Source: Candidatus Sumerlaeia bacterium | Lineage (GTDB): Bacteria > Sumerlaeota > Sumerlaeia > SLMS01 | Reading direction: 5' to 3' | Length of the DNA stretch: 55,691 bases | Assembly (NCBI GenBank): GCA_038208905.1 | Contig: JBBQYG010000006.1 | Span: 1 to 55,691 of the forward strand | Shown here: in pieces, positions 737 to 27,766 of the stretch | Position numbering within the stretch: position 1 is the first letter of the stretch | How the letters are laid out: each line of letters opens with the position of its first letter | Made by a program: the position numbers and the translations under genes | Notes under the pieces: model-generated | Database searches by the model: none | Told to the model about the DNA's origin: nothing | Seen by the model: only the letters and a program-made list of their open reading frames with translations

Positions 737-867
737 CATAATTTAGTTTTTGAGCGGAAAAGACCAGGGGATCCCCGACTCTTGCCCAAATCGTCTCCAC
801 CGAAGACCAGCTATCGGCCCAGATCGTGGAGAATACGGTCACCGTACCACAACGAGAGGCAACAAAA

Positions 868-3800
868 ATGGGTACAGCGATGAGATTTTTGGGTTATCTG
901 GCGCCGCGGCCGAGTGCAACCGCAATTCTCCTCCTCCTGATGGCGCTTTTCGGGCTGGGCAACCGCGTCTGGGCCGTTGGGGACGCATCGACGAGCTTTC
1001 AGGTCTTCGTGCCGGCAAACAACGATAACGTGGGGCGGAATGTTGCGCTCATCGTGACCAACTGTTCCCCATTCTCGACCACGGTGGACATCGTGGATCG
1101 GGATGAGGACGGGGACAGCGATGATACGGCGCTCGGTGTGGTGTTGGGGCGCGGGCAATCCTGGGTGCGCTATATCAGGGACGGCGCCGTGAATGACGAT
1201 GCGGGTGGCAAGTGGGACGGGGACTACTTCTCGATCCAGAGCGATCATCCGGTGGTGGTGCAAATGTCCACCAAGAGCGATTGGCAGTGGGATTTCGCAC
1301 CCGCCGACAACAAGACGATGCGCGGGCAGTCCTTCTTCCTCTACTCGCCCGACACCTCTTTCTCCCAGCGCGACGTGAATCTGGTCGCCTATGAGGACGA
1401 CACGGAGGTTTTCGTCCTTGATGTGACGGTGGCGCCGACCAACGGCTCCGGCCTGACGTCGGTGAATCTGGAGTCTCCCAGAGAGGTCCTCAAGACCGTC
1501 CTTAACGAGGGGGAGGATCTGATCGGTCGGCGAGGGCTGGGCGTGGATATCTTCGATCCCGGCCGCACCTACTGGATTCGGGCGTCCAAGGGTGTCACCT
1601 GCCAGTATGGGTCGCTGGTGGGGAACGCGCGGGACGGCGGCGGATTCGTCCCGTCGGAGAATGGCTTCGCCACGGGCGACAAGTTCTACTTCTACATCCC
1701 GCGCGATTTTCCAGACGAGCGCGAGGTGCGCATCGTCTCCTTCGACGACGCCAATGCGGTGGTTCTCTCGGGATGGAACAAGAGCCTTGGCCAGTGGGAA
1801 CCGTTCCGCAGTTTCACGATCGGACGGCTGGGCCATGGGGACTGGGTGGAGTCGGGGACGGACTATCCGATGTATCGGCTGACGTGCACGCCGGGTCGGA
1901 AGATTTCGGTCTTCATCGCGAGCTGGCTCGAAGCGAAGGGGCTCTCCGGCACGAAGGACATCGCGTCGTTCGCCTCCAGCCAGAGCGGCTATGGCGCGGG
2001 GAAGGAATTCCTGGTCTATGTGCCGCAGCCCGGTATCCAAGGGAACCTTGTGAGGAACGGGGCCCGCCTGGGCAACGCGAGCCACATCTATGTCTTTGGC
2101 CACGTGAATGGCACCTCGATCACGGTGGTGGATGCGGACACGAACGGCCAGTTGTTTTCCAAAACCGCGAAGGTCGAGCGCGATGGCTTTGCGGATATCC
2201 GGATGAGCGACGCGGAGTTCTCCAAATTGAACAAACCAAGCCAGGGGCTGCGTCCCTATCTCAAGGTAACCGCCAACCACCTGATCACCGCGATGGTCTC
2301 GAATCACAACGACAACTGGATGACCTTTGTGCCGAGCGTGGTGCTGCCAAATCCGCTGCTCAACGTGGAGAGCACCGTGACACAGGCGACGGTGGGGGCG
2401 GAAGGCTGCGTGACCCTCTCCGCCAGCAACGCGGGCTCGGGCGCGCTCACGTCGGCCCAGATCGAATTCCCGCTGGACCCTGCCACAACATACATTTCCT
2501 CGACATTCTCCATCGCGGGGATTGGCGAGCCGCTCATCACAATCGACCCGGCAACTGGCGGCCAGGTGCTGCAGTGGCAGGGCTTTACAATTCCAGCGGA
2601 AGGCGTGCTGACGGGAACGATTTGCTACACGTTGGCCGCGCGGCGCCCCGATGGCAAGGTGGTCAAGAATCGCGACTTCCTCAGCTTTCCCATCCTGATC
2701 AGCGGCGTGGGCTTTGGCGTTCCCGTCGATCAGGGAGGCGAGTCGGAGACGTTCACCGCACAGTCCTCCGCCGTGGTGACGGTTGACGACGCCTCGCAGA
2801 CGACGGTGAACGGGCTATCGGCAACGCCCTCCGGCGTCTTTGTGAATGTGACCTGGCAGACCGGGCGCGAGCCAGACCTGAGCGGCTTCAGGGTCTATCG
2901 GTCAACCTCCGGCGATGGGCCCTTCACGCTCCTGACAACGCAGGTGATTCCGGGAACCGGCGACGCCGTAACGGGGGCGCGCTACCAATTCCAAAACCGT
3001 CCGCCAAGCGCCGGTGCCACCTACTACTACCGGCTGGAGATGGTCAACATCGCCAACCAGTCCTCCTTCTTCGGCCCCGTGGCGGTTCTGGCGGAGGACA
3101 GGACTCCTCCGACTCCGCCGGTGATCACGTCCCTTCAGGTCGGCGACGACGTGGTCCTCGCGACGATCTCCGGCTCGACCGGAGACGGCGACCTCAAGGG
3201 CTACAACATCTATCGATCGGACACATCCAGCGGCATCTATACCAAGCTGAACGAGCTGCTGATCACGCCCGGGGCCGTCTATCGCGACAGCACCGTTGGC
3301 AATGGCGCGACATACTTCTATCGCGCCAAGGCGGTCGATACCAGCGGCAATATCTCCGACTTCAGCATCACCGCCAACGCCGTCATGGCCTCCTCGATCA
3401 GCGCGGAATACACGCTCGCCTTCGAGGATCAGATTGGGCCGGGGAAGAACGACTGGGACTACAACGACTGGGTCGTCGCCATGAAGTCCGTCGAGACTTT
3501 CCAGGGCGGCGGAGTGTCACGCGTCGAGCTGGAGATCGAAAGCCTTGCCCGAGGCGCGCGCTATCAGAACGCCTTCCGCCTGGCCTATCGCTCCGCGGGA
3601 TCGTGGACCGCCGACATCAGCGTCTTTGAAAATCGCAACGCGACCACGCCCCTCTCCACGCGCCGAGAGACCGGGACCGGCGTGGTCGATATCCAGCTCT
3701 TCGCGGACACGGTGGAAGCACTCCCCCCCGCGGAGGGTGACGACTTCACCAACACGCTCAATCGCCAGAACCCGGCTACCCTGGGCCAGCACGCGCGCGT

Positions 3801-5610
3801 GACGCTCACGCTCGCCTCGCCCGCTTCCAACAAGTCGGCCAGCCGCCATCGGCCACCATTCGACCCCTATCTGGTCAACCAGATCGGAGAGGTTCATCAG
3901 CGGCGGGAAGGCTTTCCCAACTCGACGGAAGTGGTGACCTTCTGGCCCGATAGCCCGCTGCTCGGCTATCATCTCGACTATGTGCTGGTGGTGCCGGGAT
4001 CCAGTTGGATCTGGCCTCTCGAAAATCAGAAGATCTGGGATGCCTATCCCTCCCTGTTTGCCAACAACGTCCTCTCCGGCGGAGTGCTGAGCCAGAACTG
4101 GTCTCTCCCCGGGAATCGCAATCAGGCGCGAACCTACAACTGGTATCCCTTTGCCTCCACAAAGAACCGGACAAGTGAACCGAAGGGCGTTCTCGCGGCA
4201 ACCACCGCGGAGCTTGTCGCTTCCTACGACACGATCTTTGCCGCCGGCCCCAAGGCCATTCACTACGACCCAACCTCCGCCCTGCCGGACAGCATTGTGC
4301 TTGCGGGATCCCACGGCATGGTCTCGGTCGTGGAGCCGTTCCTTGGAGGCGCCATGGAAGGATGGCCGATTACTGCGAATAGCTATCGCGCCTCTCCCGC
4401 GGTCGGGAAGCTCTCCGCAAGCGACGCAAATCCGGTGATGGTTACCGGCGAGGAACGCTATGACGACGCGGCACGTGTGCTGGTGTGGGAGCTGACACCG
4501 GAACCCGTGGCCCGTTGGCAGGCAGAGGTGGGTGGTGCGGTAAAGGCCCCGCCCGTCATCGCCGATCTGGACGGGGACGGAAACGCCGAGATCCTCGTGG
4601 TCACGTCCGACGCGCAGTTGGTGGTGCTCCTCTCCAACGGGCTACAGCAGCCGAACTCCCCCGTGTCACTCGGCACGACGCTTTGGAACTCCAAGAACAT
4701 CCTCTCCTCCGGCGGGCCAGTCGTTGTGGACATCGATGGAGACGCAAGCCTTGAAGTCTTCGCGGTGGCACCGTCGGGGGATACGATTTACGGGCTGAGC
4801 TCCTCACTGACGCCGCTCCCCGGGTGGCCGCGCAAGCTGACGGGACCGGTGGTCGGCGGCGTGACGCTGGCACAAAATCCGGCGAACTCTCAACTGGCCC
4901 TGTTTGCCGCCACCGCGGATGGGGCGGTCTATGGACTGGATGCGTTCGGCCGCCCGCTCGCCGGGTTCCCGATCCAGGTCCCTGGGAACGTGACCGTGCC
5001 GATCGTGGCCTTTGCCGAGTTCGAGGACATTCTGGATATGCTCGTCGTGACGACGACGGACGGCACCGTGAGCCTCTTTGGAACCAACGGCGCTCCGCGG
5101 GCTGGCTGGCCGCGCATGGCCGGGGCAGATGTGCTTGCGCCTCCGGTGGTGGGCGACCTGGACGGCGACGCGGAGATGGACATCCTCCTCGGCACAGCGA
5201 CGGGATCCGTTCTGACGTGGCGGCTGGATGGCACCCTGGTGGGCGATATGACATTTCAGGTTCCGGGCTCGCTCCCCGTTTCTCCCTTGTTGGCGGACTT
5301 TGACGATGACGCCCGCGTGGAGGTGTATCTGGCGACGGCGTTGGGCGACCTCTATCGCGCCGAATCAACCGGCCAGACCCCCCTTCCGCTGCGCCGCGCA
5401 CTGGGCTGGGGATCAGTCGGCGGTGGGAACGAGGCGAACGCCCCGGGGATCGAACTGTCCGTTCAGCCGAGGGCAGCGCTCGCTACAACGCGACGTCAGG
5501 TTCTCGACGTCGTTCTCGGCATCATCCGGCCCGAGGACTCAGAGGTGCTTTGCGATGTGAATCTGGATGGCGTGATCGACGCGGGCGACATCAAGAAGCT
5601 GTCGAATTGA
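868..5610 (+). CDS. Large secreted multidomain protein: signal peptide, IgGFc-binding-like N-region, DUF11-like Ig, FN3 repeats, LruC (DUF4842) domain, FG-GAP repeats, C-terminal dockerin-like motif
   Basis: ATG 868 with RBS GAGAGG; hydrophobic signal peptide; FN3 motifs (GFRVYRS, GYNIYRS, YFYRAKAVD); LruC motif TLAFED...DWDYNDWVV and PPFDPYL; FG-GAP-like IADLDGDGNAEI and VGDLDGDAEMDI; terminal DVNLDGVIDAGD. Confidence 0.85.
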   Translation: MGTAMRFLGYLAPRPSATAILLLLMALFGLGNRVWAVGDASTSFQVFVPANNDNVGRNVALIVTNCSPFSTTVDIVDRDEDGDSDDTALGVVLGRGQSWVRYIRDGAVNDDAGGKWDGDYFSIQSDHPVVVQMSTKSDWQWDFAPADNKTMRGQSFFLYSPDTSFSQRDVNLVAYEDDTEVFVLDVTVAPTNGSGLTSVNLESPREVLKTVLNEGEDLIGRRGLGVDIFDPGRTYWIRASKGVTCQYGSLVGNARDGGGFVPSENGFATGDKFYFYIPRDFPDEREVRIVSFDDANAVVLSGWNKSLGQWEPFRSFTIGRLGHGDWVESGTDYPMYRLTCTPGRKISVFIASWLEAKGLSGTKDIASFASSQSGYGAGKEFLVYVPQPGIQGNLVRNGARLGNASHIYVFGHVNGTSITVVDADTNGQLFSKTAKVERDGFADIRMSDAEFSKLNKPSQGLRPYLKVTANHLITAMVSNHNDNWMTFVPSVVLPNPLLNVESTVTQATVGAEGCVTLSASNAGSGALTSAQIEFPLDPATTYISSTFSIAGIGEPLITIDPATGGQVLQWQGFTIPAEGVLTGTICYTLAARRPDGKVVKNRDFLSFPILISGVGFGVPVDQGGESETFTAQSSAVVTVDDASQTTVNGLSATPSGVFVNVTWQTGREPDLSGFRVYRSTSGDGPFTLLTTQVIPGTGDAVTGARYQFQNRPPSAGATYYYRLEMVNIANQSSFFGPVAVLAEDRTPPTPPVITSLQVGDDVVLATISGSTGDGDLKGYNIYRSDTSSGIYTKLNELLITPGAVYRDSTVGNGATYFYRAKAVDTSGNISDFSITANAVMASSISAEYTLAFEDQIGPGKNDWDYNDWVVAMKSVETFQGGGVSRVELEIESLARGARYQNAFRLAYRSAGSWTADISVFENRNATTPLSTRRETGTGVVDIQLFADTVEALPPAEGDDFTNTLNRQNPATLGQHARVTLTLASPASNKSASRHRPPFDPYLVNQIGEVHQRREGFPNSTEVVTFWPDSPLLGYHLDYVLVVPGSSWIWPLENQKIWDAYPSLFANNVLSGGVLSQNWSLPGNRNQARTYNWYPFASTKNRTSEPKGVLAATTAELVASYDTIFAAGPKAIHYDPTSALPDSIVLAGSHGMVSVVEPFLGGAMEGWPITANSYRASPAVGKLSASDANPVMVTGEERYDDAARVLVWELTPEPVARWQAEVGGAVKAPPVIADLDGDGNAEILVVTSDAQLVVLLSNGLQQPNSPVSLGTTLWNSKNILSSGGPVVVDIDGDASLEVFAVAPSGDTIYGLSSSLTPLPGWPRKLTGPVVGGVTLAQNPANSQLALFAATADGAVYGLDAFGRPLAGFPIQVPGNVTVPIVAFAEFEDILDMLVVTTTDGTVSLFGTNGAPRAGWPRMAGADVLAPPVVGDLDGDAEMDILLGTATGSVLTWRLDGTLVGDMTFQVPGSLPVSPLLADFDDDARVEVYLATALGDLYRAESTGQTPLPLRRALGWGSVGGGNEANAPGIELSVQPRAALATTRRQVLDVVLGIIRPEDSEVLCDVNLDGVIDAGDIKKLSN

Positions 5611-5849
5611 TCGGGCCCGAATTGCAGTCAAGCTCCCCGGGGGCCTCCGCCCCCGGGCCTTGGGGGCGGAGGCTACCGCGGCTGGGCAGCTCGCTGGTCA
5701 AGCTCGCGGAAGTCGCCGTTGTGCTGATGCTAGTGATTGCGCTCCTCACGGTTCTGTATTACGTAAAGTGCGTCGTGGGCATCGACATCTTCCCGGACCG
5801 CCACTTGGCTGACTTTCTTCCAGCGTTCCTTCGGGAGTATGGGAATTGA
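5607..5849 (+). CDS. Small single-TM membrane protein
   Basis: Fills the gap exactly, with TTGA overlaps at both ends; TM helix followed by YYVKCVVGIDIFP. Start uncertain. Confidence 0.6.
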   Translation: MIGPELQSSSPGASAPGPWGRRLPRLGSSLVKLAEVAVVLMLVIALLTVLYYVKCVVGIDIFPDRHLADFLPAFLREYGN

Positions 5850-7012
5850 ACGACCTCTCCCTCTTCGTTTTCATCGATGCCTTCGGCTGGGAACTGCTGA
5901 AGCGGCATCCCGATTTCATGGAGAAGGAGCTCCCCCGCCGCTCACGCCTGAAGTCGGTCCTGGGATACAGTTCCACCTGTGATCCGACGATCCTGACAGG
6001 CCTGATGCCCCAGGACCACGGGCACTTCTCCTTCTTCTACTACAATCCCGCCGAGTCGCCTTTCGCGCTCTGCCGGGCGCTGCGCTTTCTCCCCCGGTCC
6101 ATCACCCGTCGCGGCCGCGTGCGCCGCATGATGAGCCGCCTGATCCGGCGTCTATATGGATATACGGGATACTTCCAGATTTACAACATGCCCTTTGATC
6201 GGTTGACCCTCTTCGACTACTCCGAGAAGCGGGACCTCTATCGAAAGGGGGGCATCAATAGTGGCGCGCCAACGATCTTTGACCATCTGCGGGGGAATGG
6301 CGTTCCATTCCACCTCTCCGATTGGCGGGCCAGCGAGGAGGCGAATCTCGCATCCCTCTCCGCCGCTGTTGAGAAGGGGGAGATTCGCTTTGCCTACCTC
6401 TACATGGCCGCCATGGACGCGGTACTCCACGCGGATGGAACAGAGTCCCCCCGCGTGGACCAGAAGATTCAATGGTATCATGATCGACTAGTCGGTTTGA
6501 TGAATCTCGCCCGGAAGCACTATTCGGGAGTTCGCCTCTACGCCTTCTCCGACCACGGGATGACCAACATCCACGACGTATGCGATTTGATGCCGCGGAT
6601 TGAGGCCGCGGGTCTCCGCTTCGGCGAGGACTATGCCGCGGTCTATGACTCGACAATGGCGCGGTTCTGGTTTCTGCGCCCGGGTGCGAAGGAGGCGATT
6701 CTCAAGGCGCTATCCGGAGAGGAACGCGGCCACATTCTCATGCCGGAGGATCTGGCCAGCTATCAGTGTCGGTTTCCCAAGGACAAGTACGGAGAAGTCT
6801 TCTTCCTCCTGAAGCCCGGCGTCCTATTGTGTCCAAGCTTCATGGGGGAAACGCCGCTCGCCGGAATGCACGGATACGACCCGGCGGACAAGGATACCGA
6901 CGCAATGTTTGCATCGAACGTCGCCTGCGATCCAACGCCAGCGAGGCTCGACGACCTCTATCGCCTCATGCGTGGCGAGGCTGATCGCATCATCGCCTCG
7001 CGAAAGGGATAG
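5846..7012 (+). CDS. Alkaline phosphatase superfamily (nucleotide pyrophosphatase/phosphodiesterase-like) protein
   Basis: FVFIDAFG, GYSSTCDPTILTG (putative Ser nucleophile), DAVLH, FSDHGM, GMHGYDP; no signal peptide; TTG start. Confidence 0.85.
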   Translation: MNDLSLFVFIDAFGWELLKRHPDFMEKELPRRSRLKSVLGYSSTCDPTILTGLMPQDHGHFSFFYYNPAESPFALCRALRFLPRSITRRGRVRRMMSRLIRRLYGYTGYFQIYNMPFDRLTLFDYSEKRDLYRKGGINSGAPTIFDHLRGNGVPFHLSDWRASEEANLASLSAAVEKGEIRFAYLYMAAMDAVLHADGTESPRVDQKIQWYHDRLVGLMNLARKHYSGVRLYAFSDHGMTNIHDVCDLMPRIEAAGLRFGEDYAAVYDSTMARFWFLRPGAKEAILKALSGEERGHILMPEDLASYQCRFPKDKYGEVFFLLKPGVLLCPSFMGETPLAGMHGYDPADKDTDAMFASNVACDPTPARLDDLYRLMRGEADRIIASRKG

Positions 7013-7018
7013 CCGACA

Positions 7019-8581
7019 TTGCCTCCCAAGAACCGCGCGGTCGCCATTCTGAAGAACGCGACGTCCAACTACGCGCGACAGATCATCCAGATCGCAATCT
7101 TCGTCCTCCTGACGCCGTTCATCGTGGCGAAGCTGGGGACGGATAACTTCGGACTGTGGTCCCTCATTCAGGCAACGATTGGCTTGTTGGGACTGATGGA
7201 CATGGGATTCTCCACGTCTGTGGTCAAGTACGTGGCCGAGGCGAGAGGACTCGGCGACAGGGAGAGACTGAGGCGGCTGACCTCGACCTTCTTCTGGCAG
7301 TATGCGGGTCTCGGCCTGATCACGATGGTCGCGACGGTGGTGCTCGTTCCGTTCGTCCCCCAGATACTGGGGATTCCCCCCGACCGCGCGCGTTCCGCGC
7401 AGGTGGTCTTTGCCCTGATCGGATTGCGCGCGGCCCAGGGATTGCCGCTCGGCCTATTCGCGGGAATCCTGGTGGGGTATCAACAGCAACTCCTCTCCAA
7501 CATCTGCCGCGTGCTGGGCACGGCATCCTATGGATTGCTTGCATGGTGGGCATTGAGTGTTTCCCCCACGATAGAGACGCTGGCATGGGTCAGCCTGGGG
7601 ACCGGACTCTTCGCGAATCTGGTCTCTCTTGTCTTTTGTATCAGGGCGGCGCCCGGAGTTTCACTCTCTCCAGCGAATTTTCGTTGGAGCCTCCTCGGCG
7701 AGATCAGTTCCTTCTCGCTCTGGTTCTTCCTGATTCAGGTTTCCCTCCTGCTCGCGACGCGCGTCGACACGATCATCATCAATGCGGTGATGCCCCTGGC
7801 GGCGGTCGCTGTCTATACGGTGGCGATCCGCGTCGCGGAGCGCGCGTCGTCGCTGTGCAGGCAGTTGACAAACACCCTGACGCCGGTGATCGCGGAGCTT
7901 AAGGGCGCCGGCGAGGAGAAGAACATCCGCGCCGTCTTTCTGAAGGGATCGATGCTGGCAGTCGCGGCGTCGGTGCCGATGCTGGCGGGCCTTGCATGGC
8001 TTGCGGAAGACATCGGCGGCGTCTGGATGGGGGAGGAATTCCGCGCCTCCGCCACGCCGTGCCGCCTGTTGCTGGCGGCGGCCCTCGTGGGCATCATCCA
8101 TGGGAACACGGAGAACGTCCTCTCCATGACCGGTCACCAGAGGTATCTGGCGCTCGCCACGATTGGCGGCCAAATCATGAACCTGATCCTGACACTAATC
8201 CTTGTTCGCCACTGGGGGCTGGCCGGGGTGGCGCTGGCAACGCTGCTGGCGCAAGTCACCGTGCAGATATTCTTCGTCCAGGCCCGGGGGGGAAGCCTCT
8301 ACCATATCGGCCTCATGGAGTATTACGGCCGCGTCCTGTGGCCATCGATTCCCGGGGCGATCGCGTGTGTGGGATCGATCTGGGGGCTGTCGCTGATTCT
8401 CAAGCCGACGTCACTTCTGTCGATCGCCGTCCTGCTGGCCGTGGGGGGATTCGCCTTCCTTCCCGCGTTCTGGTATCTGGGGATTGGCCGGTCTGAGCGC
8501 CGGTATCTGGCGGGTCGGGTGAAGGCGCTCTTTAGCCGGCGAAAAGCTCCGACCGCCACTCCCGACGAGGTGCCGGAATGA
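7019..8581 (+). CDS. wzx: Wzx-type oligosaccharide flippase
   Basis: Many TM helices; LTPFIVAKLG..FGLWSL, DMGFSTSVVKY, WGLAGVALAT. Confidence 0.85.
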   Translation: MPPKNRAVAILKNATSNYARQIIQIAIFVLLTPFIVAKLGTDNFGLWSLIQATIGLLGLMDMGFSTSVVKYVAEARGLGDRERLRRLTSTFFWQYAGLGLITMVATVVLVPFVPQILGIPPDRARSAQVVFALIGLRAAQGLPLGLFAGILVGYQQQLLSNICRVLGTASYGLLAWWALSVSPTIETLAWVSLGTGLFANLVSLVFCIRAAPGVSLSPANFRWSLLGEISSFSLWFFLIQVSLLLATRVDTIIINAVMPLAAVAVYTVAIRVAERASSLCRQLTNTLTPVIAELKGAGEEKNIRAVFLKGSMLAVAASVPMLAGLAWLAEDIGGVWMGEEFRASATPCRLLLAAALVGIIHGNTENVLSMTGHQRYLALATIGGQIMNLILTLILVRHWGLAGVALATLLAQVTVQIFFVQARGGSLYHIGLMEYYGRVLWPSIPGAIACVGSIWGLSLILKPTSLLSIAVLLAVGGFAFLPAFWYLGIGRSERRYLAGRVKALFSRRKAPTATPDEVPE

Positions 8582-9429
8582 ACCCCTGGATTGTGATGCG
8601 CTCCTACAACGATGCCTGGGTTGTCGGGCAGACACTCGATGGAATCGCGCGTCAGTCGATGGCGCATCGGCTGATTGTCTTCGACAATGCGTCGACCGAT
8701 GGATCGCTGGAGATTATCCGCCGCCATACGGATCGCATCGTGAATATCCCGCGGGGCGCATACATCCCAGGGCGCGTCCTCAATCAGGCTATGGCCGAGA
8801 CCGACGGCGAATTCGTGGTCTTTCTCAATTCCGACTGTGTTCCACAGGATCATCGTTGGCTGGCCTCGTTGATCGAGGGCTTCGCCGACGAATCGGTGGC
8901 GGCAGTGTTTGGACGTCAGATTCCCCGGCCCGAGTGCTGGCCCCTGTTTGCGAAGGACACGGAGGAGACCTTTGGCGACGGCGCTCGCCAGAAATACTGG
9001 AAGCATTGCTTCTCCATGGCGACATCGGCCATCCGGCGCTCCGTGTGGGAGGCGATGCCTTTTCGCGACGACATCCAGTATTCAGAAGACGTGGACTGGA
9101 CATGGCGCGCGCGTCAGGCGGGCCACACGATCCGCTATGCGGGCGGGTCGGTCGCGATGCACTCCCACAACTACACACTGAAGCAGTATCGTCGCCGCCA
9201 GTTTGGAGAGGGCCGCGCCGACGCCGCGATCTTCGATTGGAAGCCGTGGGAGAGGACCCTGATCCGGTACTCGCTTCTCCCCTTCGCCCGGCAAGTGGTC
9301 TCCGACGTGCGCTACGGAGTCAGGACCATGCAGCCCCGGGCGATCGCCCATTCGTTACCGCTGCGCCTTGTCCAGATGGTCGGACGCAGGCGCGGCTTCC
9401 AGGAGGGATGGAGCGCCCGCAGCCAATGA
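8578..9429 (+). CDS. Glycosyltransferase family 2 (rhamnosyltransferase-like)
   Basis: IVMRSYN, FDNASTDGS, FLNSD, SEDVDW, HSHNY. Confidence 0.9.
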   Translation: MNPWIVMRSYNDAWVVGQTLDGIARQSMAHRLIVFDNASTDGSLEIIRRHTDRIVNIPRGAYIPGRVLNQAMAETDGEFVVFLNSDCVPQDHRWLASLIEGFADESVAAVFGRQIPRPECWPLFAKDTEETFGDGARQKYWKHCFSMATSAIRRSVWEAMPFRDDIQYSEDVDWTWRARQAGHTIRYAGGSVAMHSHNYTLKQYRRRQFGEGRADAAIFDWKPWERTLIRYSLLPFARQVVSDVRYGVRTMQPRAIAHSLPLRLVQMVGRRRGFQEGWSARSQ

Positions 9430-10493
9430 CGCGTCGCCTCTTCGCCGAGCATGCCTCCGACGGGTTTAACGAATGGATGGAGAAGTGTGTTCAGGACATC
9501 GGCGCTGATGCGAATCGCGCGCTTGGGGACAATCTCCATGCCCTGGTCCTGGGTGGCGGCTACGCGCGGGGGGAAGGCGGCGTGGTCCGCGCGGGGGGCC
9601 ACGAGGCGCCCTACAACGATTTGGATTTCGTACTGGTGGTTCACGAGCATCGAGGCAATCCATCGGGATTGCTGAGGCCCGTCTCCCATCGCCATGAGAA
9701 GACTCTCGGCATCGACGTTGACTTCAGCCGTCCCCTCACAGTGTCGGATGTCCGCCAATGGCCCCATTGGCTGATGTGGTCGGACCTCTTGGCCGCCCAT
9801 CGCGTGATTCTGGGCCCTGGCGACATTCTCACTGCAAACGCGCCGAGGGCGCTCCTTGGGTCGCCGCCACTGATCGAGGCAACGCGACTCCTCCTGAATC
9901 GCGGAGCTGGCCTGTTGTGGTCTCTCCGAATCGCAAGGGGCCTCGAAGGCGCCCGCGATGCCGATTTCATTCGCAGGAACTTGCACAAGTGCGAACTGGC
10001 GATCGGTGACTCTGTGATCATGGCGCATGGCCGTCACCAGCCCAGATATACCGGAAGGGATGCGATCCTGGAGGAGCTGCTCTCTTCCGATCAAGCGGCC
10101 CGCTGCTTCGCGAGCCTCGACGCCTATCGGGCGGCGCTCGCATTTCGCCTGGAGCCCTCATCCGCCGAGGCATCGCAGCCGAGCGAGGCTCTTCTTTCCG
10201 CGACCGCCGAGAGGTGGGTGAAGGCGTTCGTTCATCTGGAGCAACGGAGAGCGGAGCGCGACTTCACGAACTGGGAATCCTACGCGCGATGGGATGGAAT
10301 CCGCGAGGCATCCCTCAATAGCCTGGCGGAGATGCCGCGCAACCTCGTGAGGAACGCGCGCCTTGGCCGACTCTCGGCCCGCTATCCCCGGGAGCGGCTG
10401 CTGAGGACCCTGCCGGGGCTGCTTCTGCTCCGCGGCTCCCGTTGGGATACCGAGTCCTCGCAGTTTCTCCGTGAGTGGGGAAAATACAATTGA
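9426..10493 (+). CDS. Pol-beta superfamily nucleotidyltransferase-like protein
   Basis: ATGA overlap start; LVLGGGYARGEG...YNDLDFVLV (G-G/S..DxD) followed by a helical C-terminal domain. Confidence 0.7.
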   Translation: MTRRLFAEHASDGFNEWMEKCVQDIGADANRALGDNLHALVLGGGYARGEGGVVRAGGHEAPYNDLDFVLVVHEHRGNPSGLLRPVSHRHEKTLGIDVDFSRPLTVSDVRQWPHWLMWSDLLAAHRVILGPGDILTANAPRALLGSPPLIEATRLLLNRGAGLLWSLRIARGLEGARDADFIRRNLHKCELAIGDSVIMAHGRHQPRYTGRDAILEELLSSDQAARCFASLDAYRAALAFRLEPSSAEASQPSEALLSATAERWVKAFVHLEQRRAERDFTNWESYARWDGIREASLNSLAEMPRNLVRNARLGRLSARYPRERLLRTLPGLLLLRGSRWDTESSQFLREWGKYN

Positions 10494-11422
10494 GCGCATC
10501 CTTGGCAGAACGATTCTCCGGCGTTCTGGGCTCCGACGTCACGGGTGTCACCCTGCTGGCGGAGAACAAATACTGCGGCATCCATCAAGGGACCTCCGCG
10601 GGAAAACCCGTGATCTTCAAGCAGTACAAAACCGAGGACGACAAGCTGGCTCGGCTGGAGGCGGATGGAATCAGCTTCTACCATTCGATCGCTTCCGAAC
10701 GCGAGACCCTCATCGACTCGAAAGTTCTCGGCTACGATGCGGCGCAGAAAATCATCGCGATCTCCTTCGTGCCGGGAGCGCGGCTCTCGGACTTCCTGCG
10801 CTCAGTGGCGGGGAGCCGTGATCGGTGGGCCGAGGGAGTCCACGCGATGGAGGTCCTCGGGTCGTTCCTCTCCGAGATGCGCTCAAGGACGAAGCGGGAA
10901 GGTGAACCGCTCGATCCTTTTCACTTCGAGTATCTGCGTTACGCCTCGAGTCGCCTTGCCTCGCTGCCAATTGTCGGGTCCGTGTTCTTTCGCAATGCAT
11001 TAATAGAGGCCGAAGGCCTGATCGATAGGATATCCACGAGCGGAATCTCCGCATCCATGGCCCACGGGGACTTCGTCCTCCGAAACATTCACATCGATGG
11101 GGCGAAGGTCGGCGTGATCGATTTTGCCAATACGATCAAGGCTAGCAGCCCGCTAAACGATCTCTGCAATCTGTGGCAGGGACTGGAGAACATGTTCCTC
11201 CCGGCCGAGTTCAGAAGTTTGCTCTGGGAAGGCGTCGCCCGTGGATTCGGATCGATGCCGTTCGACGAGGCCGAGGAGCAATTCTTTCACGAGTATCATC
11301 GCCGCCGCTGGTTAATGCTGAACTGGAAAACAGGGGATCCACGGCGGTGGCTGAAAGCCGTCCGGGGAATGATGACATTCGCCAAGCCGTGGGAATCGGG
11401 CGTGGGAGTTATCGCGAAATGA
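10490..11422 (+). CDS. APH/choline-kinase-like phosphotransferase
   Basis: VIFKQY..E, HGDFVLRNI, VIDF, DL motifs; TTGA overlap start. Confidence 0.8.
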   Translation: MSASLAERFSGVLGSDVTGVTLLAENKYCGIHQGTSAGKPVIFKQYKTEDDKLARLEADGISFYHSIASERETLIDSKVLGYDAAQKIIAISFVPGARLSDFLRSVAGSRDRWAEGVHAMEVLGSFLSEMRSRTKREGEPLDPFHFEYLRYASSRLASLPIVGSVFFRNALIEAEGLIDRISTSGISASMAHGDFVLRNIHIDGAKVGVIDFANTIKASSPLNDLCNLWQGLENMFLPAEFRSLLWEGVARGFGSMPFDEAEEQFFHEYHRRRWLMLNWKTGDPRRWLKAVRGMMTFAKPWESGVGVIAK

Positions 11423-12882
11423 CCATGGCTTCCCTGCTTGGCATTCTGGTCTTCGTCATCGGCGTGCCGGCGGTCGCCGCATGCCTCTTCGCTTTTCCCC
11501 ACAAGCGGCGATTGTTCCTGAGCGTGATGGTCTTTTCGATTTGCTACGTCAAGAAGCCACTCTATCAGGAGGTCTTCTTCGTCAACTATCGCGGAGTCGA
11601 TCGGGGATTCGCCGTCACGGTGCCCGATCTCTTGTTCTTTGGATTCCTCGCATGGATGATGGCGGGTGGCCTGCGGGAGAAGATCCGCTGGCTCCCCTTC
11701 AATTCCATACCCTGGTTCCTGCTGATCATCGTTTCGGGATTCTCGCTGATAGGAAGTATCGAACCCCTCTATGGCCTCTTCACGATCCACAAGTTCATTC
11801 GCTGCTGGATTCTCTACCTTGTCATCGTGAATCTGGTGCGGGATCGCGCGGATGTGATGGCGGTGCTCACGGCGCTGGCTGCCTGCGTCGTATTCGAGGG
11901 ATGCAACGTCCTCTGGGCGAAGTATATCACCAAGGAGGTGGTCGCGCGGTCGCTTGGCACATTTCGCCACCCGAATACCCTGGCAATGTTCACGGATCTG
12001 ATCCTTCCCTTGTTGATGGGCTCACTGATGGCGGGGGCGCTGATACGGAAGCAGCGAATCCTCTTCTCGGCGGCGCTGCTCTTGGGATTCGTCGCGGTTC
12101 TATTCACCAAGTCGCGGGCCGCGATGATTCTGTTGCCAATGTCGCTTGGAACGGTGGCACTGATCTCCGTGGCCATGCGGCCGACCGGTCGCAAATTTGG
12201 GATTCTGCTGATCGGCGTCGCCGCGATTGGGATTATTACCCTGTTGGCGCTCCCGCGCCTCATTAAGCGATTCGAGTCGGCGCCGAAGGAATCCGCGGAG
12301 ACGCGCGGGTACTTCAACGATGCCGCGAAGGCGATGGCGAACGAGAACCTCTTCGGCGTGGGCATCAACCTGTTCTCCCACTCGCTCGCGGAGAGCGACT
12401 ACTATTGGTATGTCTATCCCGACAAGACCGAGGTCGATGACCCCGAGGCATTCCGGGAGACAACCCAGGGCCAGAGCCGCCTTGGAACGGCACACCACAT
12501 CTATTGGCTCTATGCGGCGGAGACCGGCTACCCCGGGCTTCTGGCGTTTCTGCTGCATACCGGTTTGTTCTCCGCCTACAATCTTATCTACTTCCTGAGG
12601 GAGAAGGATCACCTCTTCAAGTCCATCCTGCTCGGCATGCTTGTCGGCACAACGATCCACCACCTCCATGGCGTGCTGGAATGGATCTTTCGACAAACGG
12701 AGGTCCAGTATCTCTACTTCGTCCTGATGGGTACAATGGTGGCAATGGTGGCGATTCGCCGCCGGGAAATGGCGGGGCCACCATCATCGCGCGGCAAGTT
12801 ATCCAGACCATTGAAACGGGTTTCGATTGTCCCCAAGCCCGTCATGGCGGACCGTCCATCTGCGACAGGGGTGCCTCTTTGA
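11419..12882 (+). CDS. O-antigen ligase/polymerase (Wzy_C) family membrane protein
   Basis: GTFRHPNTLA, FTKSRAA, FGVGIN, AHHIYWLYAAETG; multiple TM helices. Confidence 0.85.
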   Translation: MTMASLLGILVFVIGVPAVAACLFAFPHKRRLFLSVMVFSICYVKKPLYQEVFFVNYRGVDRGFAVTVPDLLFFGFLAWMMAGGLREKIRWLPFNSIPWFLLIIVSGFSLIGSIEPLYGLFTIHKFIRCWILYLVIVNLVRDRADVMAVLTALAACVVFEGCNVLWAKYITKEVVARSLGTFRHPNTLAMFTDLILPLLMGSLMAGALIRKQRILFSAALLLGFVAVLFTKSRAAMILLPMSLGTVALISVAMRPTGRKFGILLIGVAAIGIITLLALPRLIKRFESAPKESAETRGYFNDAAKAMANENLFGVGINLFSHSLAESDYYWYVYPDKTEVDDPEAFRETTQGQSRLGTAHHIYWLYAAETGYPGLLAFLLHTGLFSAYNLIYFLREKDHLFKSILLGMLVGTTIHHLHGVLEWIFRQTEVQYLYFVLMGTMVAMVAIRRREMAGPPSSRGKLSRPLKRVSIVPKPVMADRPSATGVPL

Positions 12883-15170
12883 CGCCAGACGATGTCCCAA
12901 TCGAAACGACCGCGGAAGGTGAAGCGACGGGCGGAGCCGGACTCCCGGTGGATCCCCGGGCAATTGCCTTGGCCCTCTGGACGATCCGCTGGCCGCTTGC
13001 TATCGGAGTAGCGTCTTCGCTCGTTATCGGTCTCGCCTTGGCGATGATCTTCGCCAAGCGCAGCTATACAGCCGAGACATTGATGCTGTATCAGGCACCG
13101 CCGGAGCAGACGCCGGAGGCGGCGACTATGCCGTCCCTTCTGACGCTCCTGAACATGGTCAAACTTCCATCAAATCTGGAGACGGTGATCGCGCAGTTGG
13201 ATCTCGGCGTCGATACCCGCACCCTCGGCGGGGCGACGAAGGTTGAGCTCCAGCCAAAGACGACTCTCGTGATGATCAGTGCCTCGTGGGAGAACGCCCG
13301 CAAGGCATCCGAAATCGCCAATGCCCTTCGCGACACGTTTCTGCAAACGCAGACCCGCCTGAGGCGCAACGATGCCGAGACAAGGGTGCATGATCTGACC
13401 ACGCGAATCGACGCCGTGAGTGCGAAGATGGCGGTCGCCGAGGACAAGCTCCGCGCGTTCACCAAGGAGAACCGCGTGGTGCACCTCTCCGAGGAGGCCC
13501 GCGCCCTGTTGGACGAGCTTTCATCGGTGAACCTGCTTTACGAGCAGGCCCGCATCGACAAGCGTTCCACGGAGCTCCAGGCGGCCAATGCCGACCGCCT
13601 GATCAAGGAGCTGCAGGATGAGATGGCCAAGGAGCAGCAATCCCAGGCCGCGCTGAGCGATGCGCTGAGCGAGACGAACATCCGCATCCAGCGGCTTCGC
13701 GAGTCGATCATGGACGACCGGGAGACGCGGGCCAACTACGCCCTCCTCGAGGAAGCGAGGCTCAATCTTGACCGCGCAACCAAGGCCCACGAGACGGGGG
13801 CGATCTCCCAGGAAGTGCTCGGCGAGGCTGTTGCCAAGCTGAAGATCATCGAGGCGCGGGCCGTCGATTCGCCGCAAGTCGCCGGATGGAAGAAGGAAAT
13901 CGAGGTGCTGGACAGCAAGGTGATCCCAAGTGGCGGCGGCAGCGGCGGCGTGACCGGCAACCTCCTGAAGGACATCATGTTCCGCTCGTTCGAGATTCGC
14001 CTTCAGCAGACAACGGTGACAGAGCGGGTGGACGCCCTTGCGGAGGCGCGAAAGCGCGTGGACGATCGGCTCGCCCGGTTGCCGGACTTGCAGCGGACCT
14101 TTGCCCAGCTGACGCGCGACGTGAGTACGCTGGAGGCGGAGGCGGGCCTCCTGGAGCAACGCTTGGGGGAGGCCAATCGCCTCCTTGAAGCAAGCGCGCT
14201 CCCGTTCACACTGGTCTCCGAAGCAATGCCGCCGCCCCGATCCTCGAAGTCCAACGCCAAGCTGCTGGCCGCGGGGGTGACGATTCTCCTGGGCGCGATT
14301 GTACTGGGTGCTGGTGTCCTCATCGCGGTGCTTGATCCGCGAATTCGCACGCGTCGCGAATTGGAAATCGCGCTCCGCCAGGTCACTGTACTCTGCGAGA
14401 TTCCTGCGCGTCCCGAATCCCAAACACCGTTGATCTCCGACGAATCAGAGGACGATTTGACGGAGATCTATCGCGCGGCGGCACGCCACCTGCGCACGCT
14501 GCTTCCCCAGCAAGGCGCCCGGCTACTGGTGACGGCGCCGGGGCACGGCGAAGGAACGAGCACCATCGCGGTCAATCTTGCGGCGATTCTTGGTCGCTGG
14601 GGGGAAAGAGTCCTCCTTGTTGATGCAAATCTGAGGGACGAGACCCCCGGCCCGGAAGCGCAGCCGCGTGCCGCCGGATGGCGAGGCATCCTGCGGATCG
14701 CAACGAGCAAGGGAGTCTTGTCGAACGGAACGGCGGGCGATTCCCCGCTCCGTGGATTGCTGAAGAATGATCCGGAGATTGGATTGTCGCATCTGCTGGA
14801 GGATGCTTCGCTGCCGCTCTCGCGTGCAGTGGTTCCAACACACCTAATGAATGTGTCCGCGGTCGTTCACGCATCAAGAACCGCATCGCCAGACCTGCTG
14901 GCGACGGAACGCTTCCGGTCGCTGCTCGCGGAGGCGTCGCGGTCTTTCACGATCGTGCTGGTTGATGGTCCTCCCGTGCTTGCTTCCGTCGACGCGGAGA
15001 ATGTCGCGCTGGCGGTGGACGGAATCGTGCTGGTGGTGAAGGCGATGGGTCCATTCGGCATGGCGGTGCGCGGGGCCACCGAGCCATTCGCCCGCCTGGG
15101 CAAGCCCATCACCGGAGGAGTCCTCACGGGCGTCGCCGCGCTGTATGCCTCGGGCGCGAGTTCCAAGTAG
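12879..15170 (+). CDS. Wzc/GumC-like polysaccharide co-polymerase with degenerate BY-kinase domain
   Basis: Two TM helices flanking a long coiled coil; TAPGHGEGTST (Walker A Lys replaced), LLVDAN, IVLVDGPP; TTGA overlap start. Confidence 0.85.
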   Translation: MTPDDVPIETTAEGEATGGAGLPVDPRAIALALWTIRWPLAIGVASSLVIGLALAMIFAKRSYTAETLMLYQAPPEQTPEAATMPSLLTLLNMVKLPSNLETVIAQLDLGVDTRTLGGATKVELQPKTTLVMISASWENARKASEIANALRDTFLQTQTRLRRNDAETRVHDLTTRIDAVSAKMAVAEDKLRAFTKENRVVHLSEEARALLDELSSVNLLYEQARIDKRSTELQAANADRLIKELQDEMAKEQQSQAALSDALSETNIRIQRLRESIMDDRETRANYALLEEARLNLDRATKAHETGAISQEVLGEAVAKLKIIEARAVDSPQVAGWKKEIEVLDSKVIPSGGGSGGVTGNLLKDIMFRSFEIRLQQTTVTERVDALAEARKRVDDRLARLPDLQRTFAQLTRDVSTLEAEAGLLEQRLGEANRLLEASALPFTLVSEAMPPPRSSKSNAKLLAAGVTILLGAIVLGAGVLIAVLDPRIRTRRELEIALRQVTVLCEIPARPESQTPLISDESEDDLTEIYRAAARHLRTLLPQQGARLLVTAPGHGEGTSTIAVNLAAILGRWGERVLLVDANLRDETPGPEAQPRAAGWRGILRIATSKGVLSNGTAGDSPLRGLLKNDPEIGLSHLLEDASLPLSRAVVPTHLMNVSAVVHASRTASPDLLATERFRSLLAEASRSFTIVLVDGPPVLASVDAENVALAVDGIVLVVKAMGPFGMAVRGATEPFARLGKPITGGVLTGVAALYASGASSK

Positions 15171-15171
15171 A

Positions 15172-19919: not shown

Positions 19920-19938
19920 CAGGAAAGGGCGATGTCCC

Positions 19939-20856
19939 ATGAAGGCAAACGGTTCGGAGTTCTTGCTGCTCAAGCCAACTCGGTCGGCCCCCCATGCCGA
20001 TGCGTTGGCCCGTGAGTTGGGCATGCCGCTGGCCCCAAGGGCCGAAGTCGAAACCGGAAAGACGGCTGTCGTGTTCATGGAACGCGGCATGGCAAGCGGC
20101 GGATGGCTTCGTTCCCTCGGCGATGTGGTGCTGTGTGTGCCACCCGATTTTCCGCTCGCCGACTTGACTGCCCTCTCCTTCGGGGCCTTCGGCAACGCGA
20201 TCCGCCGACTGGTGGTACACACGCCGATGCATCACCTGTTTGCGCTGGAGCGTCTTGAATTCCCGGCGCACCGTGTGGAGTTGATTCCCCCGGGTGTGGA
20301 TATACGGGCGTTCGCCTGCACGACGGAAAAGCGCGATCCAGGAATGCTCGTGGTGGCGGAGTTCGAGGGATGCGACCCGGGATTCGTCGTTCGCTCCGGC
20401 CTCAATCGTGAGGCCACCGTCGTGAAGGTTGGTGCCGCTCCCCAGCCGGAGCGCGCCGCCGCCTTTGCCCGTGCCGGTGCGGTTCTGGTCGCCGCGGCGA
20501 ACCGCGAATCAGGCGCGGGGGCCTCGCTCCTTCTGGAAGCAATGGCCTCCGGTGCGCCGGTCGCGGTTTCGCGGACATGGGGGATGGAGCACCTCCTCGT
20601 TGACGAGACGGAGGGACTGTTCTTCCCCGTGGATGGCACAAAAGGTGGCCGCGATGCCGTTCGCCGACTCCTCTCCGATCCCACCGAGGCGGCAAGGCTC
20701 GGCGCGAACGCCGCAGCGAAAGTCTCCTCGACCCTGACGATGGCTCACTACGCCGCGCGCATTCGGCGCATCGCCCTCGTTCCAGGGGACGCTGCCTCGC
20801 CGGAGTTCTTCCTGATCGCGGCCCATGGGCGTGCCGAAGCGGCGAGCAAGGGATGA
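19939..20856 (+). CDS. Divergent GT4-like glycosyltransferase
   Basis: IPPGVD, ESGAGASLLLEAMASGAPV; shortened N-terminal domain. Confidence 0.7.
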   Translation: MKANGSEFLLLKPTRSAPHADALARELGMPLAPRAEVETGKTAVVFMERGMASGGWLRSLGDVVLCVPPDFPLADLTALSFGAFGNAIRRLVVHTPMHHLFALERLEFPAHRVELIPPGVDIRAFACTTEKRDPGMLVVAEFEGCDPGFVVRSGLNREATVVKVGAAPQPERAAAFARAGAVLVAAANRESGAGASLLLEAMASGAPVAVSRTWGMEHLLVDETEGLFFPVDGTKGGRDAVRRLLSDPTEAARLGANAAAKVSSTLTMAHYAARIRRIALVPGDAASPEFFLIAAHGRAEAASKG

Positions 20857-22058: not shown

Positions 22059-22063
22059 AACCG

Positions 22064-22863: not shown

Positions 22864-24171
22864 ATGGCAGAGAACAAGCTGAACATTCTCATCGTCGAAG
22901 ACGATCCGCAGCTGTTGCGAATCCTGCAGGCGGTGCTCAAGCAGGAGATCGAACTGCGCATCGCCAACACGGGCCGCCTGGCGCTGCAAATGATCGAGGA
23001 CCAGCCACCGTCCATCGTGCTGCTGGATATGCGACTTCCCGACATGATGGGGATGGACATCCTGAAGGAAATCGCCCGCAAGGCGATCCCCACGACGGTA
23101 ATCGTGATGACCGCGCACGGCTCCGTGGACCTTGCTGTGGACGCGATGCGCGAGGGCGCCTATGACTTCATGACGAAGCCGCTGGATTTCGAGCGCGTCC
23201 GCGTCATGGTGCGCAACGCTGTCGAGCGCCATCGAATCATCCAGGAGCTGGATAGCTACAAGACGCAGTATGAGCGCACGCGGTTCCGCGGGCTGATGGG
23301 TTCCTCGCCCGCGATGCAGCGCCTCTATCGTCAGTTGAGGAGCGTGGGCCTGGGCTCCTCACCCGCCCTGCTGGTCGGTGAACCCGGCACCGAGCTGAGC
23401 GCCTGTGCACGGGCGCTGCACGACGAGAGCGCCCGTGCCTCCGCACCCTTCGGCGAGTGCGCCGGCAGCACGCTCGGACCCGACGCGCTCGCCATCGCCC
23501 TGACCGAGTATGACCGCGGCACCCTCTCCATCTCCGCCGTGGAGGACATGCCCCGCGACGCGCGGGAAGCCCTCCTCGCCTATCTGCAGAAGGGGCGCAT
23601 TGGCGACCACGCCTGGTCGACCCGCGTGATTGCGTCCAGCCACGCCGCCCTAAACGAGCTGGCCCTTCAGGGGAGGTTCGAGAAGGACCTGCTGGTCGCT
23701 CTCGAAGTGGCCCGCATCCAGGTCTCCCCCCTGCGGGAGCGCGGCGAGGACGTACTCGACATGGCGGAGCACCTGCTCGGCGCCTATACCAGGGAGCTCG
23801 AGCGATCCTTCACGGGATTCTCCGACGAGGTCGAGGTCGCACTGGTTCACTATGAATGGCCCGGCAACCGGGGCGAGCTCGAGAAGGTGCTGCGCGCGGC
23901 AATCCAAAAGCACGAGGGGCGAACGCTGACGCTCGAAATGCTTCCGGCGGAGATTTCCGCCACGCTGGCCAAGGGAGACGCGAAGGGCGCGGCGCCCGTC
24001 CGCGGCTTGGCCGGCGGATCGATCAGACCCCTGTGGCAGGTTGAGCGTGAGGAGATCGAGAAGGCCCTCAAGCTGTGCGAAGGAAATGTCCTTCAGGCGG
24101 CGCGCCTGCTGGAGGTCAGCCCGGGCACGATCTATCGCAAGCAGCAGAGCTGGAAGTCGCGCAAGCTATAG
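22864..24171 (+). CDS. LuxO/NtrC-like response regulator (REC-AAA+-Fis HTH) with degenerate AAA+ domain
   Basis: Intact REC (EDD, LLDMRLPD, TAHGS, KP) and LuxO-like C-terminus (IRPLW...CEGN...VSPGTIYRK). Walker A is GEPGTELS, ESELFGH/GAFTGA is missing, Walker B is TLSISAV. Confidence 0.85.
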   Translation: MAENKLNILIVEDDPQLLRILQAVLKQEIELRIANTGRLALQMIEDQPPSIVLLDMRLPDMMGMDILKEIARKAIPTTVIVMTAHGSVDLAVDAMREGAYDFMTKPLDFERVRVMVRNAVERHRIIQELDSYKTQYERTRFRGLMGSSPAMQRLYRQLRSVGLGSSPALLVGEPGTELSACARALHDESARASAPFGECAGSTLGPDALAIALTEYDRGTLSISAVEDMPRDAREALLAYLQKGRIGDHAWSTRVIASSHAALNELALQGRFEKDLLVALEVARIQVSPLRERGEDVLDMAEHLLGAYTRELERSFTGFSDEVEVALVHYEWPGNRGELEKVLRAAIQKHEGRTLTLEMLPAEISATLAKGDAKGAAPVRGLAGGSIRPLWQVEREEIEKALKLCEGNVLQAARLLEVSPGTIYRKQQSWKSRKL

Positions 24172-27731: not shown

Positions 27732-27766
27732 GGTGTCTATACGCGGTCGGTTTCGGTAGGGCGCCG

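Follow-up and report, generated by a model that had tools for sequence, protein, structure and literature searches.

The window considered here is a 55,691-nucleotide (nt) stretch of DNA from a Candidatus Sumerlaeia bacterium (contig JBBQYG010000006.1; all positions refer to this stretch), and it carries one long polysaccharide operon on the + strand, from position 826 to approximately 24171. Inside this operon lie genes for an alkaline phosphatase (AlkP)-superfamily metalloenzyme of the nucleotide pyrophosphatase/phosphodiesterase (NPP) type, a family 2 glycosyltransferase (GT2), and a nucleotidyltransferase (NT) that lacks a Pfam or NCBIfam family; they are referred to below as AlkP, GT2, and NT. 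Comparison with related loci strongly supports the view that AlkP, GT2, and NT function as a single conserved module in repeat-unit assembly on the cytoplasmic side. The same comparison strongly supports that the small-molecule kinase encoded next to NT, which has the aminoglycoside phosphotransferase (APH)/choline-kinase fold, is a lineage-specific addition tied to one type of Wzy polymerase.

The genes in question are all on the + strand. AlkP (5846..7012; PF01663 Phosphodiest, 52.1 bits at a cut-off of 23) is followed by a Wzx/MOP flippase (7019..8581; PF01943, PF13440, and MatE), the soluble GT2 (8578..9429; PF00535, 63.1 bits), NT (9426..10493), the kinase (10475..11422; PF01636 APH, 25.2 bits at a cut-off of 23.2), and a Wzy-type polymerase with a Pfam Wzy_C domain (11419..12882). 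A 6-nt gap separates AlkP from Wzx, and from there to Wzy the genes overlap by 4, 4, 19, and 4 nt. NT has an alternative start at 9408, with GGAGG upstream of that start. None of AlkP, GT2, NT, and the kinase contains a hydrophobic 19-residue segment with a Kyte-Doolittle mean of at least 1.6, while Wzx, Wzy, and a small open reading frame (ORF) upstream of AlkP do have such segments in the same scan, Wzx and Wzy many of them. Because membrane segments are absent, AlkP, GT2, NT, and the kinase fit soluble cytoplasmic enzymes. An earlier note on this DNA had described AlkP, NT, and the kinase as apparently cytoplasmic enzymes packed with wzx and GT2 at 5846-11422, and the Pfam matches, the structure models, and the spacing given above bear this out.

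A scan of species-representative genomes returned at least 550 stretches that encode NT relatives, and the best 80 of these (L001-L080) were taken for comparison. These loci are mutually related phylogenetically and come nearly all from metagenome-assembled genomes; their sources include Sumerlaeota, Thermodesulfobacteriota, Planctomycetota, Verrucomicrobiota, Acidobacteriota, Spirochaetota, Myxococcota, Hydrogenedentota, Omnitrophota, Gemmatimonadota, Lentisphaerota, Kiritimatiellota, and others. Partners were counted by tblastn with the window proteins, using only loci with enough flanking DNA, and clusters of neighboring genes rest on crude ORF calls. In 52 of 67 loci, NT is preceded on its own strand by a GT2 gene whose end lies no more than 300 nt away. 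For AlkP, 33 of 59 loci have it on the same strand as NT at a distance of up to 4 kb, and the count is 41 of 59 when any position in the ±10-kb surroundings is allowed. A kinase gene begins at most 300 nt downstream of NT in 27 of 67 loci, and the other 40 have no kinase beside NT. Among the 51 loci with full context, 24 combine AlkP (within 4 kb) with an adjacent GT2, and six of those 24 have the kinase as well; AlkP, NT, and kinase occur together in 14 of the 51. Seven kinase-bearing loci have no AlkP within 10 kb, and each of the five corresponding genomes that were searched encodes an AlkP of 43-44% identity (E ~1e-100), in three cases on the same contig as the NT locus at a distance of 14-31 kb. 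Placement of Wzx between AlkP and GT2 is confined to Sumerlaeota-like loci. Chance does not account for the arrangement in the window, given that dozens of loci in other phyla have these genes together as well. The unit that is conserved is thus AlkP, GT2, and NT and not, as first proposed, a triad of kinase, NT, and AlkP; moreover, GT2, to which the first proposal gave no part, is the partner most regularly found with NT, adjacent in the 52 loci above and fused to it in 60 proteins.

In the 45 loci of at least 15 kb, Wzy is encoded in 35, Wzx in 28, Wzc in 29, family 4 glycosyltransferases (GT4) in 38, WecG in 11, and Bac_transf in 10, and 42 of the 45 have at least one of these polysaccharide-assembly markers. 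The expectation that the genes would travel with wzx, wzy, and the gene for an LruC-like protein therefore stood for the first two and failed for the third: an LruC homolog is present in only one of the 45 long loci, and the LruC-like gene of the window is context and not a conserved partner.

Gene fusions link the same three enzymes. All 60 long NT relatives (623-2000 amino acids, aa) carry GT2 Pfam domains; in the seven of these 60 that were inspected the GT2 part is N-terminal, and two fused GT2 parts share 55% and 39% identity with the GT2 of the window. Among 33 long AlkP relatives, three are fused to GT2, 10 to GT4, two to a polysaccharide deacetylase (PF01522), and one to peptidase-type Pfam domains (PF01433 and others), and 17 proteins of 785-831 aa have PF01663 as their sole annotated domain. 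Two of these 17 were compared with the NT profile, and in both the C-terminal half is NT-like (hhalign probability 99.4%, E 1.7e-21, and 98.5%, E 2.7e-15). A structural match in the ESM Atlas agrees with an AlkP-NT fusion: the cluster, of 813 aa, has a TM of 0.84 by query, and 100% of its members carry PF01663. Hence, each pair among AlkP, GT2, and NT exists somewhere as a single polypeptide. The AlkP-GT4 and AlkP-PF01522 fusion proteins (P0330-P0341, P0331, and P0344) come mostly from Omnitrophota-like sources. A prediction of a complex between AlkP and NT scored 0.00; controls were not run, and the result counts neither way.

Within the phylum of the window, strong NT matches are found in five of 75 species genomes, and the kinase occurs in exactly the same five, always adjoining NT. 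AlkP with at least 65% identity is present in four of the five; the fifth genome is 90% complete and has its locus on a 21-kb contig. The association of the three genes in other genomes, on which the original proposal depended, is in this respect observed. Two other genomes of the phylum carry a distant, adjacent trio of genes for an NT-like protein, a PF01663 AlkP, and a GT2 (L081:7439-10751, +, and L082:6482-9758, −). In both, the order is NT-like, AlkP, GT2, which differs from that in the window, and identity to the window proteins is 29-31% for the NT-like protein and 25-26% for the AlkP-like protein. GT2 was compared for L081 only and is 37% identical (E 5e-40) to that of the window. The distant AlkP paralog also matches PF01676 weakly. 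In L082, the trio is followed by genes for an O-antigen polymerase, another GT2, and two GT4 enzymes. On the evidence of this paralogous trio in two genomes of the phylum, the NT-AlkP-GT2 association predates the arrangement seen in the window.

The L081 trio lies outside a Wzx/Wzy locus, near BNR, NAGPA, and GH43-like genes. The NAGPA gene, which encodes a phosphodiester glycosidase 3 kb from the trio, was considered as a part of the module and rejected: tblastn with that one protein gave no match in L001-L080 or in the window. The NAGPA family is common, with four copies elsewhere in the window's own genome and members in eight of 14 control genomes.

Folds and active sites

NT has no Pfam or NCBIfam match even at E ≤10, including the PF01909 (NTP_transf_2) and AadA_C models, and its profile gave a single chance-level match among the sequences of solved structures. 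The pol-beta signature hG[GS]...[DE]h[DE]h with its third carboxylate can nevertheless be read from its motifs (GGGYARGEGG...YNDLDF...DVDF): in 26 diverse members, GGGY-x-RGEG, D65-x-D67, and D99 are invariant, as are many residues in the helical half. The AlphaFold2 (AF2) model of NT has a pLDDT of 94.3 and a pTM of 0.91. Foldseek places the aminoglycoside nucleotidyltransferases (ANTs) AadA (E 4.5e-4), ANT(4'), and AAD(9), together with LinB, at its top ranks (E 4.5e-4 to 3e-3; TM 0.36-0.43 by query). In a VIA-align search of 48,161 chains, AAD(9) and ANT(3'')(9) are best (Z 11.8 over 210-217 residues, rmsd 3.5-3.7), followed by HalB (Z 10.3), ANT(4') (9.9), DrrA (9.7), MNT (9.6), LinB (9.0), and GlnE (8.0). 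Residues 145-295 are HEPN-like at Z ~7-8, which gives the two-domain architecture of ANTs, an N-terminal NT domain followed by a helical HEPN-like domain. On the strength of these Foldseek and VIA-align matches, NT is, as modeled, an ANT-like two-domain nucleotidyltransferase that lies outside the existing sequence models. It resembles AAD(9), ANT(3'')(9)/AadA, ANT(4')/KNTase, and LinB in its domains and in the G-G/S...DxD motif with a third carboxylate; unlike them, it shares only 9-16% identity, is ~100 residues longer, resides in polysaccharide operons, and is fused to GT2 or AlkP in some relatives. All of the structural relatives listed attach a nucleotide to a hydroxyl group. A LicD/FKRP-like assignment was considered and set aside, as no such structure appears among the 50 best VIA-align rows or in the Foldseek list, an absence that is not proof.

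The NT family is sizable. Among 8000 candidates scored, 372 are relatives at E ≤1e-3, and an exhaustive profile search gave 2113 representative clusters at E ≤1e-3, of which 447 reach E ≤1e-30. The 120 relatives listed have no Pfam domain and are named "hypothetical protein" or, once, "predicted nucleotidyltransferase". A tblastn search of a plasmid collection returned no NT relative.

For AlkP, the family profile finds ENPP7 (1.3e-7), ENPP6, ENPP5, ENPP4 (to 2e-5), and bacterial NPPs as the best matches among solved structures, and neither a mutase nor an LtaS/EptA-type enzyme at E ≤0.1. In 29 sequences, D11, S42, D191, H195, D236, H237, and H342 are invariant; these correspond to the bimetal ligands and a putative serine nucleophile. 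S42 aligns, within a weakly scored stretch, with the motif threonine of ENPP7, which we take to be the nucleophile of that enzyme, and T44, conserved in at least 90% of the sequences, is an alternative candidate. AlkP thus shares with ENPP7, ENPP6, ENPP5, ENPP4, and bacterial NPP the PF01663 domain, a complete set of metal ligands, and a nucleophile at the aligned position. It differs from them in being soluble, in having Ser in place of Thr at the weakly aligned nucleophile position, in its own signatures RGRVR and YDSTMARFW, and in its fusions to glycosyltransferases. Because no hydrophobic N-terminal or membrane segment is present, it does not have the topology of a secreted or ecto-enzyme. 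Judged from its sequence, AlkP is an NPP-like member of PF01663 with an atypical, cytoplasmic topology.

The earlier comparison of AlkP with EptA and LtaS consequently needs revision. EptA/LptA, LtaS, GacH, OpgB, and the GPI ethanolamine-phosphate transferases belong to the same superfamily, but the bacterial ones among them are anchored in the membrane, work outside the cytoplasm, and have the sulfatase-type domain PF00884, whereas AlkP has PF01663 only and no such membrane domain. We assume that PF01663 also includes the GPI ethanolamine-phosphate transferases, which a full-text literature search did not confirm.

The AF2 model of the kinase (pLDDT 94.0) matches kinases of the APH/choline-kinase fold at Z 16-20: corramycin phosphotransferase (Z 20.4), methylthioribose kinase (19.9), maltokinase (19.3), N-acetylhexosamine 1-kinase (17.4), and LicA (16.3), as well as APH(9), homoserine kinase, and glucosamine kinase. 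With its profile giving only marginal matches among solved structures (E 0.036-0.046), the fold assignment therefore rests on the models, and the modeled scores lie too close together to name a substrate. K49, E62, H197-G-D199, N204, and D216 are invariant in 23 sequences. The catalytic residues of AlkP, NT, and the kinase are therefore invariant across their family alignments, as the proposal of the earlier note requires.

Occurrence of the kinase follows the polymerase. In loci with the kinase, Wzy shares 43-67% identity with that of the window (n=27); in loci without it, the range is 24-53% (n=22), and the 53% case is L072, a locus with a fragmentary kinase match. On a quick maximum-likelihood IQ-TREE tree of NT (67 rows, after removal of 14 partial or interrupted ones), loci with the kinase cluster together: the label needs 10 changes, against a mean of 21.7 after shuffling, and none of 500 shuffles was as low. 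Well-supported branches force at least four gains or losses of the kinase, and the deepest branches, as placed by midpoint rooting only, are without it.

Possible chemistry of the module

Phosphate-linked decoration of the repeat unit before flipping, the theme put forward in the earlier note, remains the most economical one. As a tentative model, for which we claim appreciably less than even confidence, GT2, NT, and AlkP would work one after another on the repeat unit while it is lipid-linked and attach a phosphate-linked group to it by way of a nucleotidylated intermediate; the kinase would be a lineage-specific extra. We infer every chemical step of this model from fold-typical chemistry and from the order that the fusions suggest. 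GT2 would add a sugar to the undecaprenyl-diphosphate-linked repeat unit. NT could then transfer a nucleotidyl group from a nucleoside triphosphate to a hydroxyl of the unit, a reaction that its structural relatives perform on aminoglycoside sugars, and so generate a sugar-O-P-O-nucleoside phosphodiester. AlkP, with its putative Ser nucleophile and two metals, might resolve this phosphodiester into a phosphomonoester or into a transferred or bridging phosphodiester. AlkP-superfamily transferases such as EptA and LtaS move phospho-substituents via a covalent intermediate, an analogy that would be compatible with the AlkP step. The kinase, where present, may add a further phosphoryl group or prime a substituent, and the unit would be changed enough to need its own type of Wzy. 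The finished unit would be flipped by Wzx and polymerized by Wzy.

Several points weigh against this model. The order of the steps and the acceptor would follow only from fold-typical chemistry and the fusions. Classical NPP chemistry releases a nucleoside monophosphate and would reverse the O-nucleotidylation, and this is its weak point, as a productive outcome requires atypical regiochemistry or transfer. In addition, the model leaves unexplained why a nucleotidyltransferase and a phosphodiesterase should be used in place of a kinase. The GT2-NT and AlkP-NT fusions fit a line of donor supply or a writer/eraser pair equally well, and the putative AlkP-NT fusions were checked in two of 17 proteins. 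The counts derive from the best 80 of 550 loci, which are mutually related; AlkP is non-adjacent in approximately four of 10, and five of the 51 full-context loci have no partner beside NT.

A broader form of the same idea, which we consider doubtful, is that the module represents kinase-independent decoration or cross-linking of extracellular polysaccharide (EPS) in many phyla. In this scenario, ANT-like O-nucleotidylation of the sugar added by GT2 would be followed by NPP-like conversion to a phosphomonoester or a sugar-phosphate-sugar bridge.

The earlier note had mapped kinase, NT, and AlkP onto LicA, LicC, and LicD, such that the kinase phosphorylates an alcohol or sugar, NT makes a nucleoside diphosphate (NDP)-linked donor, and AlkP transfers the phospho-substituent as a phosphodiester. 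As in the Lic1 pathway, a kinase of the APH/choline-kinase fold lies beside a nucleotidyltransferase and a putative phosphoryl-handling enzyme in a surface-glycan locus, and the enzymes are cytoplasmic and would act before export. All three are present, adjacent, and intact in their catalytic residues; the kinase fold includes LicA (Z 16.3) and the choline/ethanolamine kinases, NT and kinase share exactly the same five of 75 phylum genomes, and AlkP-NT fusions fit consecutive steps. A transfer step by AlkP would also have precedent in its superfamily, where EptA, LtaS, and the GPI ethanolamine-phosphate transferases move phospho-substituents via a covalent intermediate. The defining components tell a different story. 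The choline-kinase-fold kinase is found (PF01636, invariant catalytic residues), but among the 18 window ORFs scanned (826-29536) there is no match to a LicC-type cytidylyltransferase of the GT-A fold (PF00483/PF12804) or to LicD (PF04991). Since two of the three defining components were looked for there and are missing, the module does not belong to the Lic pathway. Here, NT has a pol-beta/ANT fold and is neither of the LicC type nor a LicD, the third enzyme is an NPP-type metalloenzyme, and the kinase is optional across the family while GT2 is the obligate partner. A functional analogue of this pathway is also unlikely: the kinase is absent beside NT in 40 of 67 loci, with at least four gains or losses on the NT tree, and the scheme has no role for GT2, which is fused both to NT and to AlkP. 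Moreover, NT is ANT-like, and we know of no member of the ANT fold that uses a phosphate nucleophile to make an NDP-alcohol.

Another possibility, to which we attach similarly little weight, is that the genes supply the donor for GT2. The kinase, acting at the anomeric position, and/or AlkP, acting as a phosphomutase, would provide a sugar-1-phosphate, NT would convert it to a nucleotide sugar, and GT2 would transfer the sugar. A linear chain of this kind is consistent with both the AlkP-NT and the GT2-NT fusions. Methylthioribose kinase, maltokinase, and N-acetylhexosamine 1-kinase, which are relatives of the kinase (Z 19.9, 19.3, and 17.4, respectively), phosphorylate the anomeric position. 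The AlkP superfamily contains phosphopentomutase and the cofactor-independent phosphoglycerate mutase, and the weak PF01676 match of the distant AlkP paralog points in the same direction. AmgK-MurU and NahK-type salvage is alike in that an APH-fold sugar kinase (NahK, Z 17.4) stands beside a nucleotidyltransferase that feeds a glycosyltransferase. However, the nucleotidyltransferases of that salvage and the known sugar-1-phosphate nucleotidylyltransferases have another fold than NT, every ANT-like relative listed for NT uses a hydroxyl as its nucleophile, and we know of no AlkP partner in such salvage. The solved relatives of AlkP are all NPP phosphodiesterases or pyrophosphatases, with no mutase at E ≤0.1, and AlkP is kept even where the kinase is present.

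NT and AlkP could also be a writer and an eraser, although we regard this too as improbable. NT would nucleotidylate a protein, for example GT2, or make a nucleotide signal, and AlkP would remove or degrade the product, thereby switching repeat-unit synthesis. NT resembles the AMPylators DrrA (Z 9.7) and GlnE (8.0), the MNT antitoxins (9.6), and the oligonucleotide synthase HalB (10.3), and fusions of writer with eraser or of writer with target are the pattern of GlnE and of GGDEF-EAL proteins. STAS-domain genes in 17 of 45 related loci and SpoIIE-HATPase regulators in two of 45 would fit regulation as well. Against this, 10 AlkP relatives are fused to GT4 and two to polysaccharide deacetylases, which is better accounted for by a glycan-directed enzyme, the genes lie mid-operon among biosynthetic genes, between wzx and wzy, and the top structural matches of NT are small-molecule sugar modifiers. 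That the enzymes are mere accessory neighbors in the operon, with no shared pathway, is scarcely credible in view of their recurrent adjacency across many phyla, the pairwise fusions, and the deep paralogous trio.

Stepwise modification of the lipid-linked unit by GT2, NT, and AlkP is retained as the working model. A full-text literature search, read at the level of its result listings, returned no description of the AlkP, GT2, and NT combination, and the module would thus perform glycan modification by phosphoryl/nucleotidyl chemistry with an apparently undescribed combination of enzymes.

The operon around the module

The locus has the components of a Wzx/Wzy-dependent system: a flippase, a polymerase, a Wzc-like regulator, and the initiating transferase (Bac_transf, WecG). 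All genes of the operon are on the + strand. The first encodes a giant secreted LruC-like protein (826..5610; Pfam DUF4842, DUF4114, and FG-GAP), and the small one-pass membrane ORF upstream of AlkP follows (~5613..5849; start uncertain). Downstream of Wzy are genes for a Wzc-like chain-length determinant/tyrosine autokinase (12879..15170, with an inferred TTG start at 12879), five GT4-type glycosyltransferases (15145-16380, 16377-17621, 17599-18774, 18771-19919, and 19888-20856), a WecG/TagA-family transferase (20853-22058), and a Bac_transf initiating phosphoglycosyl transferase (ORF 21809-22846, in which translation probably begins at a later position). The last operon gene encodes a sigma-54-dependent response regulator (22864..24171), and a gene for a hybrid histidine kinase (HisKA-HATPase-REC-Hpt; 24166-26784, −) converges with it; the two are likely regulators of the locus.

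The C-terminal tail of the small ORF at 5613-5849 (G-I-D-I-F-P-D-R-H-L-x-D-F) resembles, by eye and unscored, the tail of a family of ~130-aa membrane proteins that closes Desulfomonile-type loci and occurs in nine of the 45 long loci. Upstream of the module, 13 of the 45 encode large proteins of the GH9 (cellulase) family that have a CelD_N Ig-like domain (e.g., L004:4740-8285 and L063:5223-7577), and the window has its LruC-like protein where other loci have GH9. The GH9 neighbors hint at a beta-glucan-like backbone. The STAS-domain genes (anti-sigma antagonist-like, with a DSSG motif) mentioned above are located directly upstream of AlkP/GT2; loci that bear them include L003, L008-L014, L018, L020, L029, L055, L059, L061, L066, and L073. 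The window has no STAS gene in this position upstream of the module. The SpoIIE-type regulators are GAF-SpoIIE-HATPase_c_2 partner-switching proteins. Beyond the operon, a 636-aa ORF at 27626-29536 (+) has no Pfam family at E ≤1e-4. The G+C content is 0.67-0.69 at 30000-38000 and 44000-52000, with strong AT skew, and ~0.62-0.64 in the operon.

Implications for glycan modification

The NT family is large yet without a Pfam or NCBIfam model, and the module to which it belongs is fixed in polysaccharide loci of mostly uncultured phyla. Its chemistry, once solved, would be a new step for the catalogue of glycan modifications and would make sense of a set of "hypothetical" genes that recurs in EPS and O-antigen-like loci. 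It could also supply enzymes for putting phosphate-linked groups on glycans. Should the kinase-independent nucleotidylation route prove true, it would be a new kind of glycan activation. ANT-like and APH-like enzymes that act on the cell's own sugars would bear, moreover, on the long-standing question of the origin of aminoglycoside-modifying enzymes; if this kinase-independent route is real, it would point to housekeeping relatives that may have been the source of aminoglycoside nucleotidyl- and phosphotransferases.

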